NCBI GenBank assembly: GCA_963828345.1
Contig: CAWHEZ010000004.1
Location: 64,539 to 128,538, forward strand
Direction: 5' to 3'
Length of the DNA: 64,000 nucleotides
DNA from: an uncultured delta proteobacterium
GTDB lineage: Bacteria; Desulfobacterota; Desulfobacteria; Desulfobacterales; SpSt-501
Shown in pieces: positions 41,108 through 48,872 of the stretch; position 1 is the stretch's first letter, and every line of letters begins with the position of its first letter. The position numbers and the translations under genes are program-made. Under the pieces are notes generated by a model. The model did no database searches, was not told where the DNA came from, and was given only the letters and a program-made list of their open reading frames with translations.

Positions 41108-42559
41108 CTACCTCGGCTCGGGCCACTGCCGCACGACCCGGTTTTCGGAATCCAGCAGGGTGATCTGCACACCGTGATCGCCGTCCAGGCGATGCGTGGC
41201 GCAGCTGATTCAGGGATCGTAGGCGCGCACCGCCATTTCGATCCGGTTGAGGATCCCCTCCGTCACCGGCTCGCCCTGGATCAGCATGCGGGCAGCCTGC
41301 TTCACGCTCAGGTTCATGGGGCCCAGGTTGTGGGTGGTCCCGACGATCAGGTTGGCGCGCGTAATCAGCCCGTTTTCGTCCGTCGAGTAGTCGTGGATCA
41401 GCGTCCCGCGCGGGGCTTCCACGCACCCGACGCCGCGGCCGGCGCGCGGCTCGACCTTGGCGCGCACGTTCGGGTCGGTGATCGCGGGGTCCTCCAGGAT
41501 CTCGATCGCGCGCTCGCAGGCGTAGACCTCCTCGATCAGCCGGGCGTAGTGGTAGAGCAGGGTCGCCTGCGCCGGCCGCCCGAAGAGGGAGCGGAACTCC
41601 TCGAGCTCGGCCTGCGCGCGCGGGGTGGCCATGCGGTCGGCCACGTTGATGCGGGCCAGCGTGTTGGCGCGGTAGATGCCCTTGGGGTGGTCCACGTCGA
41701 GCGCGAACCCCTCGTTCCAGCAGCGCGCGTAGGGGAACTTCCCGTAGGAGTTGGGCTCGACGTGCTCGCCCAGGTAGTCCGCGTAGTCCTGGGGGTCGAA
41801 GTCGATGAAGGTCCCGTCGGGCTTCATCAGCCGGATCCGGCCGTCGTAGAGGTTGTGGGCGCCGTCGGCGTCCACCGTCCCGATGAAGCCGGTCGTGATC
41901 ACCCCCAGGGTCCGGATCGCGTCCATGTACTTCGGGAAGACGTTCTGCTTGGCGAAGTCGATCGTGAAGAGCGCGAAGTCGAGCACCTGGCGCATCTTGG
42001 CCAGGATGTCCACGCGATCCTCCTCGAGCATGGGCTTGGAGAAGCCGCCCGGGACGCCCGCGATCGGGTGGATGGTTTTGCGCGAGAACTTGTCCAGGAT
42101 CATCTTGACCATGTACCGCATCTTGACGACCTGGGTCGCCAGCTCCGGGTTGGCCTTGGCGATTCCGACCACGTTGCGCACCGCGTAGTCGGCGTCCGGG
42201 CCGATGACGAAATCCGGGGCCGCGAGGAAGTAGAAGTGCAGCAGCTTGTCCTCGGCGTGGGCGATGGTCTGCATCAGCTCGCGCAGCCGGTGGCCGGTCG
42301 GGGTCGGCGTCACCCCGAAGCAGCGGTCCACGGCCTTGTTGGAGGCCAGGTGGTGCATCCAGGGGCAGATGCCGCAGATGCGGCAGACGATGTCCGGCAG
42401 CTCCTCGGCCGGCTTGCCTTCGACGAACTTCTCGAACCCCCGCAGGGACATGTAGTTCACGCGGGCATCCGTGTAGCGGCCCGCCTCGTCCAGCCAGATC
42501 TTGATGGACGCATGGCCCTCGATGCGGGTGATCGGTTGAATGGTGATGGGCGAGGTCAT
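41108..42559 (-). CDS. mvhA: [NiFeSe] hydrogenase large subunit (Mvh/Vhu-type, group 3c-like) with in-frame UGA selenocysteine
   Basis: N-terminal Ni-ligand motif RICGICP. The C-terminal motif reads RAYDP-TGA-ISCATH, that is DP[U]xxCxxH, with the TGA at 41210-41212. The frame stays open for 33 more codons to the TAG at 41108-41110, consistent with a protease-cleaved tail. Confidence 0.85.
41177..41193 (-). promoter_or_regulatory. candidate SECIS hairpin for the mvhA UGA
   Basis: 16 nt after the UGA: AUCGCC-UGGAC-GGCGAU (6-bp stem, G-containing pentaloop). Confidence 0.6.
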
Positions 42560-42560
42560 G

Positions 42561-43501
42561 TCAACTCGATCTCCTTTCGTGAGGTATCGGTTTGAGCAGG
42601 GAGTGCGCCCCGGAGAAGCGCAGCAGCAGCGGCCGGTTGGGGATGGACCGGACGTCGATGCCGTTGGAGGCGAGCGCGTTCACCATGTCCAGCAGCTGGT
42701 TGCCGTCCGGGCGCACCGGCCCGGAGCAGCCCCGGCAGGGCACCCGGGCCGAGATGCAGCGCGGGGTCACCCCGTCGCCCCCGCAGCCGGCGCGCGTGAC
42801 GGGCCCCATGCACAGGAACCCCTGCTCCAGCAGGCAGCGCATCCGGTCGAGCGGCTCGCCCGGTTCGTGGTAGAAGGGCGCCTGCAGGAAGCGCCGCACC
42901 TGCTTGACCTCGCCCTTGCCCTTGCGCACGGTCGGGCAGGTGTCGCACACACTGTGCGACGGCACCTTGAGCGGGGTGCCCTGCACGAGGGCGACCAGCG
43001 CGCTGAAGATGTGGTCCGGGTGGGGCGGGCAGCCGGGCAGATGGATGTCCACCTTGATCTTCTCGTCCACGGCGTAGCAGGCATCCAGCAGCTCGGGGAT
43101 GTCCTCGGACGGGTAGGCATCGGGCCGGTCGGTGGTCTCGGTGGAGAAGGCCCGCTCCAGGATCTCGCCGTGGTGAACGAGTTGGCCAGCGCCGGGATCC
43201 CGCCGTGGGTCGCGCAGGTCCCGAGCGCGATGATGATCTTGCACTTCTTGCGCATCTCGTGCGCGACCTCGAGGTGCTCCGAGTTGCGGATCCCGCCGCT
43301 GATGAGGCCGACGTCGGCTTCCGGCAGATCCATGTGCGCCTTCTCCCCGGTCTGGCCGTAGTATTTGCTGTCCACCAGCGCGGGGAGGTGGACGATGTCC
43401 GCCACCTGGAGCACGTCCAGCAGGCGCTCGCCCATGTCGAGAATCGAGATCTCGCACCCCGAGCACGAATTCAACCACTCGCTTGATACGCGGACACCCA
43501 T
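42561..43501 (-). pseudogene. mvhG: [NiFe] hydrogenase small subunit (MvhG-like), one frameshift
   Basis: MGVRVSSEWLNSCSGCEISILD...ALGTCATHGGIPALANS is in the frame of ORF 42767..43501. VHHGEILERAFS...HLPGCPPHPDHIF...PCRGCSGP follows in the frame of ORF 42561..43478. One nt is missing around 43180. The stop is 1 nt before the mvhA ATG. Confidence 0.85.
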
Positions 43502-43529: not shown

Positions 43530-43610
43530 TTTTAGTGTTGGTGTTCAGTGTTTAGGTGTTTAGGTGTTTGGGTCGTGCTTCGAAACACGTAACACCGCAA
43601 CACTTAAAAC
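43530..43610. repeat. GTGTTT(A/G)G tandem-repeat hairpin element
   Basis: The left arm AGTGTTGGTGTTCAGTGTTTAGGTGTTTAGGTGTTTGGG pairs with the right arm CGAAACACGTAACACCGCAACACT. It lies in the spacer between the hdrCB-like gene and mvhG. Confidence 0.6.
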
Positions 43611-43623
43611 TCTTGTTCCCCAG

Positions 43624-44919
43624 CTACAGTCCTACTTCGGCCAGCTCCGGGCCGAGGTAGGCGCGTTCGTTTTCGCCCAGGCAGCCCATGGCGAGGCAGA
43701 TCAGCGTCCAGAGGTGCACCGTGTGCCAGCCGCCCTTGAAGTGCTCGCTCAGGTCGTGGATCTGCGAGTGGCAGTTGTGGCACGGGGCGATGCAGTACGG
43801 CGCGCCGGTCGCCAGGATCTGGTCGGTCTTGATCTTGCCGAAGGCGCGCCGGCCTTCGGCGTAGCCGGCCTGGAGCGCGCCGCCGCCGCCGCCGCAGCAG
43901 TAGTTGTTCGAGCGGTTGGGCGTCATGTCGACGAAGTTCTCCTCGCCGACCACCCGCTTGACGACGTAGCGCAGGTCCTCGGCGTAGGCGTCGCCGAAGG
44001 TCTTGCGCACCTGGTTGCAGGGGTCCTGCACCGTGAACTTGACCCGGAGGTCCTTGTTCCAGTCCGCGGACACCCGCAGCCGGCCCTCGCGCAGCCACTG
44101 CGCGTAGAGCTGGACGATGGTGGTGATCTCGAAGGAATGAGGGATGTTGTACTTTTGCAGTCCGGCCCGGACTGCGAAGAGCTCGTGCCCTCACTCCGTG
44201 TTGACCCAGTATTTACAGCCCAGGTCGTCGACGGCCTTGGCCTTGATGCGCACGATGCGTTCCCAGCTCTCGTCGTCGGCCAGGAACATGCAGTAGTTCT
44301 CGGCGGCCCAGCCCTTGGTGCCGTAGGTCCAGTCGGCGCCGACCGCGTGCAGGATCTTCCAGAGCGGCACCATCTCGTCGGGCTCGGTCACCGGCTCGCG
44401 CGAGTTCTGGTTCACGAAATACGTCGCCCCCCGCTTGTCCAGAGGCGCCTGGAGGGTCTCCCAGCCGGGCTGGTTGGCGCGCACCTCCTCGAGGACGTCC
44501 TCCACCACGAAGCGGAAGTCCTCCTCCGAGGCGCCCATGGCGCTGCAGCTCTCGTGCTTGAGCGCCATGTCGCAGGAGCCGCGGATGCCCTTGGGCCGCT
44601 CCTCGCGCGGCCAGCTCTTGCGCGCGTGGTAGACCAGCTGCGGGATGTCGATCTTCATCGGGCAGACGTAGATGCAGCGCCAGCAGAGCGTGCAGTTCCA
44701 CACCCACTCGGTCTTGAGGATCTGCTCGTCCAGGCCCATGCTGGCCATGCGCAGGAACTTGCGCGGGTCCATCCCGGCGATCCCGGTGGCCGGACAGCCC
44801 GAGGCGCAGGCGCCGCACGTCAGGCAGGCGTTCAGGTTCCCGCCCTCGGGCAGCAGCTGCATGACCCGGTCTTTGAAGATGCTTTTGCGTTCCTTCGGGA
44901 GCACGATCGGTTCGGTCAT
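43624..44919 (-). CDS. fused HdrC/HdrB-like (HdrD/GlpC-type) Fe-S oxidoreductase with in-frame UGA selenocysteine
   Basis: Two ferredoxin motifs, CLTCGACASGCP and CTLCWRCIYVCP. CCG-domain motif NYCCGGGGG and APCHNCHSQ. The TGA at 44191-44193 sits in WVNTE-TGA-GHELF, where homologues carry ECGH. ORFs 44191..44919 and 43624..44073 are in the same frame. Confidence 0.8.
44157..44175 (-). promoter_or_regulatory. candidate SECIS hairpin for the hdrCB-like UGA
   Basis: 15 nt after the UGA: GCAGUCC-GGGCC-GGACUGC (7-8 bp stem). Confidence 0.6.
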
Positions 44920-44922
44920 GGC

Positions 44923-45378
44923 TCACCTCGCTGCGGCCGACGCCGGGGCCGCCACGGCGGCCTTGCGACGCGGGATGGGGTTCGGGCCGATGCCGCGGAT
45001 CTTTTCGGTGAAGCAGGTCACCACCTCCGCGAAGCGCGGCGCTTCGGCGGACGACACCCACTCGACGCCGTACCGTTCGGGGTCGACCCCCTGGGTTTCG
45101 AGGACCATGCGGACGGCTTCGCTGCGGGCCAGGGCTTTGTGATTACCATCCAGGTAATGACATTCGCCCAGGTGTCAGCCCATCAGGATGACGCCGTCGG
45201 CCCCGCGGCGGAAGGCCTCGACCACCAGCTCCGGGTGCACCATGCCGGAGCACATCACGCGCACCGCGCGCATGTTGGGCGGGTACTGCAGGCGCGAGAC
45301 CCCCGCCAGGTCGCCCCCGGCGTACGCGCACCAGTTGCAGAGGAACCCCAGGATCACCGGTTCGAATTTCTCGCTCAT
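44923..45378 (-). CDS. mvhD: methyl-viologen-reducing hydrogenase delta subunit (MvhD) with in-frame UGA selenocysteine
   Basis: MSEKFEPVILGFLCNWCAYAGGD...GADGVILMG-TGA-HLGECHYLDGNHKA. The family motif is GCHxGxCHY. The TGA lies at 45175-45177. ORF 44923..45108 is in the same frame. Confidence 0.85.
45142..45158 (-). promoter_or_regulatory. candidate SECIS hairpin for the mvhD UGA
   Basis: 16 nt after the UGA: AUUACC-UGGAU-GGUAAU (6-bp stem, pentaloop nearly identical to the mvhA one). Confidence 0.6.
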
Positions 45379-48500: not shown

Positions 48501-48605
48501 CACCAGATGGACGAAGTAACCCGAGTTGGCGAGGTCGAGGGTCGCCTGCATGCCGGCGATGCCTCCGCCAACCACCAATACGGAACCGATGGGTTTGCCT
48601 GACAT
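45552..48605 (-). CDS. hdrA: large HdrA-like flavoprotein with two tandem HdrA modules and in-frame UGA selenocysteine
   Basis: ATG 48605 with an AGAGGTG RBS. MSGKPIGSVLVVGGGIAGMQATLDLA...DKTFPTNDCAM-TGA-IISPKLVEVGRHLNVELL, with the TGA at 48426-48428. A second FAD module starts at KALVIGGGVAGMHSALGLA. Several CxxCxxCxxxCP ferredoxin motifs. 1,017 aa if read through. Confidence 0.85.
48393..48410 (-). promoter_or_regulatory. candidate SECIS hairpin for the hdrA UGA
   Basis: 15 nt after the UGA: CUGGUC-GAGGUC-GGCCGG (6-bp stem including two G-U pairs, loop containing GGUC). Confidence 0.55.
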
Positions 48606-48872
48606 AGTCACCTCTTTGGCCGTGGAATGAAGGGGGGGGGTGATGCGCGCATCACCCGGGAGGGGAACCGAGTTGGAAAGGACGATCTCCTGCATGACGG
48701 CGACCGGGATGAGTTGCTCGCGGCAGAACTCCGCGAACGCATCCTGCGCGATCATGTATTTCTTCCCGACGGTGGCGCTCGCCCGCAGCTTGCCGCTGCG
48801 GATCCAGTTGGTGACGGTGTTGCGGTGAACGCCGAGCTTTTCGGCGAGCTGTCCGACGCGGATTTCGATCAT
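48606..48872 (-). CDS. excisionase/MerR-like helix-turn-helix DNA-binding protein; in this assembly it has no stop codon and runs in frame into hdrA
   Basis: ATG 48872 with a GGAGG RBS, overlapping the protease stop (ATGA). MIEIRVGQLAEKLGVHRNTVTNWIRSGKLRA is a classic HTH. No stop occurs before the hdrA ATG at 48605. Removing one G from the G9 run (48632-48640) would create a TGA 2 nt before that ATG. Confidence 0.6.
48638..48657. promoter_or_regulatory. 20-bp perfect palindrome upstream of the hdrA start (candidate operator or RNA stem)
   Basis: GGGTGATGCGCGCATCACCC equals its own reverse complement. It lies 33-52 nt upstream of the hdrA ATG and overlaps the end of the G9 run. Confidence 0.6.

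Follow-up and report, generated by a model that had tools for sequence, protein, structure and literature searches.

An in-frame UGA, probably a selenocysteine codon, in an HdrD-like gene of an uncultured member of the Desulfobacterales

Described selenoproteins and Hdr-type relatives

Kryukov and Gladyshev reportedly described in 2004 a selenoprotein family under the name "Fe-S oxidoreductase (GlpC)". The same name is listed as a selenoprotein family by Zhang et al. (2006; PMC1794560), with the operon glpC-hdrA-frhD-frhG-frhA, and a 2026 review gives the family motif as UGH, describes a four-selenoprotein operon and calls the functional relations unclear (PMC13188914). A selenocysteine (Sec)-containing HdrD, hdrD4, was recorded in 2009 in the genome paper on Desulfobacterium autotrophicum (PMC2702500). 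Outside the selenoproteins, the nearest described group is that of the CCG proteins with a single noncubane cluster, which share two CxxCxxCxxxC motifs, one CXnCCGXnCXXC motif and, in a degraded second motif, (G/T)ECGH; the cysteine of that last motif in DsrK, Cys329, is the sole residue left of the distal noncubane cluster that HdrB has and DsrK has lost, and GECGH is common to HmcF and TmcB (PMC10861901).

The locus described here lies in a stretch of 64,000 nucleotides, analysed as a whole and called the window below, from an uncultured Desulfatibacillaceae-like member of the Desulfobacterales. It shares with the published GlpC selenoprotein family the U-G-H motif and the type of protein, the operon partners (Sec-HdrA, Sec-FrhD/MvhD, FrhG/MvhG and Sec-FrhA/MvhA) and the phylum, the former Deltaproteobacteria, in which Syntrophobacter fumaroxidans, Desulfotalea psychrophila and Desulfovibrio vulgaris are published hosts. 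It differs in its host and in gene order, since here the gene sits inside the operon (hdrA-mvhD-hdrD-mvhG-mvhA), whereas the 2006 paper places glpC ahead of hdrA. Sec-HdrD4/HdrF2 of D. autotrophicum HRM2, likened here by its description, is also a selenoprotein of the Desulfobacteraceae and a soluble HdrC + HdrB fusion ("HdrD, HdrCB homologous protein"), and has a Sec-HdrA and a Sec-MvhD alongside; the position and role of its Sec are not discussed in that paper (PMC2702500).

Two further systems resemble the locus in part. The methanogen HdrABC-MvhAGD complex (PDB 5ODC and related entries) has the same partners HdrA, MvhD, MvhG and MvhA, and its subunits match the protein by HdrB fold and by HdrC sequence. 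HdrB and HdrC are separate in the methanogen complex but fused here, and methanogen HdrB holds two noncubane clusters and no Sec, whereas here the distal site is degraded to C...E-U-G-H. With DsrK, HmcF and TmcB the protein shares two cubane motifs, one complete CCG motif and the invariant E-(C/U)-G-H, but it has Sec instead of Cys, scores far under the NCBIfam cut-offs for all three, and is soluble, with HdrA and MvhADG as partners and no membrane cytochrome. DsrK differs further in that the last CCG ligand is Asp, which is Cys here, and in that Cys116, Cys210 and Cys235 are extra here.

An earlier note on this DNA had held the Sec site in this subunit to be the least expected in the operon and less widely recognised than Sec in HdrA or MvhD. 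That assessment has to be withdrawn, given a published UGH family in this very type of operon (PMC1794560; PMC13188914) and a Sec-HdrD already on record (PMC2702500). Family, motif and operon are known, and the finding is a correct re-discovery in a new metagenome-assembled genome (MAG) that adds nothing to the selenoprotein catalogue.

A reading frame continuous across the UGA

On the minus strand, ORF 44191..44919 (242 aa) and ORF 43624..44073 form one frame, between whose halves stand only the TGA at 44193-44191 and 39 sense codons; standard ORF calling accordingly splits the locus in two. The earlier note had described this arrangement, and translation bears out its coordinates and sequence context: with the TGA read as U, the frame runs ...GCKYWVNTE-U-GHELFAVRAGLQKY... 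over residues 234-257. The first possible start of the distal ORF is the GTG at 44073, 39 codons after the TGA, and the codons in between align residue for residue with full-length homologues. Third-position GC content (GC3) stays between 0.91 and 0.99 in the HdrD-like frame from ~45400 to 43850, unbroken over the TGA. Two genuinely separate genes, which the earlier note had named as the outcome that would speak against Sec, are not what was found: we detected no independent start for the part of the locus after the TGA, and both homology and GC3 cross that codon. The features of the locus and its operon are collected in Table 1.

Table 1. Features of the HdrD-like locus and its operon (positions in the window; all on the minus strand)
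Feature	Position	Strand	Remarks
hdrA, double-module, ~1017 aa	45552..48605	minus	probable Sec codon 48428-48426 (..NDCAMU..); translation
mvhD	44923..45378	minus	probable Sec codon 45177-45175 (..LMGUHLGECHY..); translation; hairpin apical loop UGGAU
HdrD-like / "GlpC-type" Fe-S oxidoreductase, putative selenoprotein gene	43624..44919	minus	431 aa, HdrC-like + HdrB-like fusion, one UGA read through
HdrC-like 2x[4Fe-4S] ferredoxin domain	44650..44835	minus	residues 29-90; Pfam Fer4_8 + Fer4_17
Probable UGA codon for Sec243 in T-E-U-G-H	44191..44193	minus	aligned Cys and conserved TGA
Candidate bacterial SECIS-type hairpin	44157..44175	minus	7-8 bp stem, G-rich apical loop; folding and covariation
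Complete C-terminal CCG domain	43759..44034	minus	residues 296-387; Pfam PF02754, E 2.5e-9
Stop codon TAG of HdrD-like gene	43626-43624	minus	
mvhG, hydrogenase small subunit	42561..43501	minus	two reading frames, 1-nt deletion near 43168
mvhA, [NiFeSe] hydrogenase large subunit	41108..42559	minus	probable Sec codon 41212-41210 (DPUxxCxxH); translation

The operon runs on the minus strand in the order small helix-turn-helix gene, hdrA, mvhD, HdrD-like gene, mvhG and mvhA, with the mvhD stop only 4 nt ahead of the HdrD-like start. Three more Sec codons, one each in hdrA, mvhD and mvhA, stand at known motif positions. The helix-turn-helix ORF (MerR/excisionase-like; window 48605-48872, minus strand; MIEIRVGQLAEKLGVHRNTVTNWIRSGKL...) lies directly upstream of hdrA and shares its frame. 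Between the HdrD-like gene and mvhG, the spacer at 43530-43620 is built of AAACACC/TAAACAC repeat units, which also occur, at varying length, in a congener (G013). The deletion in mvhG falls at 43167-43168 in a GGG run, which reads CACGACGGGCGAG in this 97%-identical congener and CACCACGG-CGAG here. Either mvhG is a real pseudogene or the indel comes from assembly; with this frameshift, the operon copy that carries the HdrD-like gene may be impaired, unless the assembly has indel errors.

The residue aligned with the TGA is cysteine, within E-C-G-H, in each of 120 full-length database homologues, and the E, G and H of the U-G-H motif are invariant or nearly so in the homologue alignments. In 40 related genomes searched in six frames, nearly every orthologue and paralogue has one internal TGA: among the 52 loci examined there, the TGA stands exactly in the E-U-G-H column in 46, which span three subfamilies down to ~35% identity, and the remaining six, the Cys forms, have TGC there. 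Both checks had been proposed in the earlier note, and both came out in favour of its reading; the ECGH-type cysteine that it gives for HdrD/GlpC/DsrK-type proteins at this spot is likewise matched by the GECGH of this genome's own DsrK and HmcF/TmcB-like protein.

The pattern extends to public Desulfobacterales and Desulfobulbales genomes, MAGs as well as isolates, in which all 80 best-matching loci have the TGA, those of Desulfonema magnum, Desulfosudis oleivorans and Desulfocicer vacuolatum among them. Together with the 46 loci above, 126 of 126 TGA-bearing relatives keep the TGA in that one column. By contrast, a large protein database yielded only Cys forms as full-length relatives. Standard gene callers split the gene, and the Sec forms are thus systematically mis-annotated in Desulfobacterales genomes and MAGs.

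The genome itself holds two further E-U-G-H selenoprotein genes (G000:C29:201570 and G000:C3:199200). A paralogue with 75% identity is one of them; the other, a member of a distant "WPEUGHAY" subfamily with ~35% identity, lies inside a 1441-aa read-through frame.

The downstream hairpin and the decoding machinery

Bacterial Sec insertion depends on a SECIS element, the RNA structure bound by SelB to deliver the Sec-tRNA. The earlier note had pointed to a strong hairpin beginning 15 nt past the TGA, and both folding and covariation uphold it at 44175-44157. It reads GCAGUCC(G)-GGC-(C)GGACUGC, that is GCAGUCCG-GGC-CGGACUGC, with an apical loop of GGC or GGGCC. The 71-nt RNA region has a folding energy of -32.4 kcal/mol (z = -4.85), and none of 200 shuffles is as stable; for the 55 nt from the UGA onward z is -2.89, and one of 200 shuffles is as stable. 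An outer helix in the minimum free energy fold, UGAGGG/CCCUCA, was considered as part of the element and rejected, being conserved only in the closest relatives.

All Sec forms keep the hairpin, with compensatory changes such as those from G-C to U-A, from A-U to U-A and from U-A to C-G. Across 44 Sec-form sequences, 86.6% of cells are paired compared with 75.5% in shuffles; five of the eight hairpin pairs show changes on both sides, and slid controls reach at most 49%. The unpaired cells come mostly from the "WPEUGHAY" subfamily, because its hairpin is shifted by one position relative to the main-subfamily register. In the six Cys forms there is no equivalent hairpin, and the encoded peptide there is STFSVW... 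instead of the ELFAVR... of the Sec forms. Within the operon, the G-rich apical loop lies at nt 26-30 counted from the UGA in the HdrD-like gene, mvhD and mvhA alike, a common position that fits one SelB reading all three. A scan of the operon against Rfam at E <= 1 returned no family, and the hairpin was thus compared with the published SECIS consensus only; it has the anatomy and the covariation of a bacterial SECIS.

Turning to the machinery, the organism's own genome contains selA (608 bits) and a Sec-containing selD with an in-frame TGA of its own. The 51-contig, 97.5%-complete assembly lacks selB, as judged by TIGR00475, the Pfam SelB wing domain and tblastn with a congener SelB, and lacks tRNA-Sec, as judged by Rfam, ARAGORN on all contigs, a regular-expression scan and blastn with tRNA-Sec sequences of congeners. 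A single "tRNA-???" call by ARAGORN (C18:31591-31688) was dismissed as a false positive, lying inside a 684-aa ORF and having no Rfam match. Next to selA lie genes for a TPR protein and for a CheD-like protein; selB is not there. In the same genus, however, 23 of 24 genomes have selB, and ARAGORN and Rfam detect tRNA-Sec(UCA) in three of the four congeners to which they were applied. We read the absence of selB and tRNA-Sec as an assembly gap; it is the main caveat for this organism, in which decoding of the UGA is inferred from selA, selD and the congeners because those two genes are missing from the assembly.

Many Sec genes are present in this assembly in spite of the missing selB and tRNA-Sec. 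Five congeners (G005, G007, G012, G018 and G022) have two selB genes each, and in two of them the second, more divergent selB (~280-305 bits; G012:C15:55099-57119 and G018:C27:257492-259514) adjoins a second, divergent tRNA-Sec(UCA), possibly a duplicated Sec-decoding pair. Beside selB in congeners such as G013 we also observed a ~70-nt repeat, 90-97% identical copies of which occur on at least six contigs of the organism's own genome (C29, C14, C9, C47, C35 and C3); it is a REP- or MITE-like element and may explain assembly breaks.

Taken together, we read the UGA at 44193-44191 as a selenocysteine codon, with a probability of roughly 0.9 on the comparative sequence evidence. A true stop would leave two genes, or a pseudogene made by a nonsense mutation or sequencing error, and in either case a 242-aa HdrC-like product with or without a C-terminal fragment. 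The divided ORF calls, the assembly without selB and tRNA-Sec and the indel in neighbouring mvhG all lean that way, but a TGA in the exact column of 126 independent loci is incompatible with random nonsense mutation. Against a stop there also stand the lack of any start in the 39 conserved codons past the TGA, the continuity of GC3 and homology, a covarying hairpin limited to the TGA forms and the invariant Cys in alignment, so that we regard a true stop as very improbable. Still less credible is that the UGA is read as some other amino acid, whether by genome-wide reassignment (TGA as Trp or Gly, for instance) or by Cys insertion. Nothing specific favours this, apart from the general point that read-through alone leaves the inserted residue unspecified. 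A reassigned code is excluded by the use of TGA as the ordinary stop of hdrA, mvhD and mvhG in this same operon, and taking all TGAs as sense gives frames with dozens of odd codons; in-frame TGAs are instead found only at known Sec/Cys positions, a hairpin following each, in a genome that has selA and a Sec-containing selD.

Domains of the 431-residue protein and the place of Sec243

With the UGA decoded as Sec, the product would be one 431-aa cytoplasmic iron-sulfur protein, which is 63-70% identical over 100% of its length to the 120 full-length homologues, annotated as (Fe-S)-binding proteins. A Pfam scan returns Fer4 families and a single CCG match. In the ferredoxin domain, Cys 32, 35, 38 and 42 and Cys 76, 79, 82 and 86 are invariant, and PDB HdrC chains match the N-terminus at E values of 1e-11 to 1e-17 in sequence and profile searches. 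The C-terminal CCG domain, a profile match to residues 134-270 of HdrB 5odc_B, has the ligand pattern C301...C341-C342-G...C380-xx-C383, whose cysteines are invariant in every subfamily except for the Asp of DsrK at the last position, and is the predicted site of a single noncubane [4Fe-4S] cluster. It is also the only complete CCG motif, since E-U-G replaces the "CCG" triad in the N-terminal lobe, with an invariant His after it. From secondary structure, U243 had been guessed to occupy a CxxC position; the C210-x32-EUG spacing and the literature place it in the "CCG" triad, and the guess was dropped. An hhalign comparison of the N-lobe with the C-lobe for internal duplication was uninformative (probability 0.2).

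An AlphaFold2 model built from 44 homologues (mean pLDDT 88.4, pTM 0.88) supports a two-lobe, HdrB-like fold: in Foldseek it matches HdrB chains 7bkb_B, 5odc_B and 8rvu_B at E ~1e-5 (TM 0.59-0.68, target-normalised) and Mycobacterium smegmatis EtfD (9ojn) at E 2e-9 (TM 0.67, query-normalised). The fusion of HdrC-like and HdrB-like parts proposed in the earlier note is borne out by Pfam, the PDB profile matches and Foldseek, and on the modelled fold the predicted protein is an HdrC + HdrB fusion, "HdrD-like". The best NCBIfam models are HmcF (NF045711; 166.4 bits against a cut-off of 750), TmcB (NF045724; 160.9 against 735) and DsrK (NF045796; 111.9 against 400), each score being far under its equivalog cut-off. 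As used in the literature, "GlpC" is a label of the COG kind that does not imply orthology, and it is misleading because the true GlpC model, TIGR03379, gives 28.6 bits against a cut-off of 279.9, in a match confined to the ferredoxin domain.

A true DsrK is encoded by a separate gene in the same genome (710 bits), and BLASTP aligns NTEUGH of the HdrD-like protein with GGECGH of that DsrK; DsrK and the HmcF/TmcB-like protein of this genome both have GECGH at the aligned position. The HdrD-like protein shows the whole motif set of the single-noncubane-cluster proteins, with Sec in place of Cys. Universal among the Sec and Cys subfamilies, DsrK and the TmcB-like protein are the eight cubane cysteines, E-(C/U)-G-H and the five C-terminal CCG ligands, the last being Asp in DsrK. 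Cys116, Cys210 and Cys235 are, on the other hand, specific to the subfamily, in which the first two are invariant and the third is at least 90% conserved. As judged by alignment, then, Sec243 stands where DsrK, HmcF and TmcB have the cysteine of (G/T)ECGH, which is Cys329 in Archaeoglobus fulgidus DsrK.

In a limited literature search we found no publication linking the Sec column to DsrK Cys329, and selenocysteine goes unmentioned in the two sources on the DsrK cysteine (PMC10861901; bioRxiv 10.64898/2026.08.25.746951). We regard the equivalence as a small connecting insight, not a discovery. It ties an old, functionally unexplained selenoprotein family to a newly characterised active site, that of DsrK with its single noncubane cluster and GECGH cysteine, which would give the family a concrete mechanism and the DsrK model a natural Sec/Cys-pair argument.

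In DsrK, Cys329 is non-ligating, appears as a persulfide in cryo-EM maps and is placed between the single noncubane cluster and the sulfur of the substrate; it has been proposed to act as a sulfur relay, with His331 as the likely proton donor (bioRxiv 10.64898/2026.08.25.746951). A catalytic role for Sec243 is inferred from this homology. The contrary view is that Sec243 is a metal ligand that, with Cys116, Cys210 and Cys235, binds what is left of the distal cluster, or a modified form of it, in the N-terminal CCG lobe, comparable to the modified [3Fe-4S] cluster of BamD (D4), so that selenium tunes a cluster and is no free nucleophile. The C210-x32-E-U-G spacing fits the Cx31-39CCG part of the CCG motif, the conservation of the three cysteines within the subfamily is high, and BamD illustrates that degraded distal sites can hold unusual clusters. 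The N-lobe motif, however, has no CxxC part. None of the three extra cysteines occurs in the distant Sec subfamily, in DsrK or in the TmcB-like protein, all of which keep E-(C/U)-G-H, so the conserved function of the column needs none of them. As the equivalent DsrK cysteine is moreover seen as a persulfide and ligates nothing, we consider a ligand role for Sec243 improbable. Given those three cysteines, the N-lobe may still bind some metal centre.

We favour a redox role for Sec243. A further-reaching reading, to which we give less than even odds, starts from selenium for sulfur at the DsrK-Cys329 position in several HdrD-like subfamilies, even in those that have no other N-lobe cysteines: this may be independent evolutionary evidence that the residue in this column works as a free redox nucleophile, or relays sulfur, next to a single noncubane cluster. 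On that reading HdrA-MvhD-HdrD(Sec)-MvhGA may be an H2-driven, electron-bifurcating reductase whose substrate is a di-, per- or trisulfide, either of low molecular weight or bound to a protein, such as a DsrC-type carrier. By analogy with DsrK, the selenol of Sec243 would not ligate a cluster but, next to the single noncubane [4Fe-4S] cluster, would act as nucleophile or relay sulfur. Its attack on a disulfide, persulfide or trisulfide would yield a Se-S intermediate, which the cluster would reduce in one-electron steps with His245 as the proton donor; Cys116, Cys210 and Cys235 are possible resolving partners. The electrons would come from H2, by way of the co-encoded [NiFeSe] MvhAG, MvhD and a flavin-based bifurcating HdrA.
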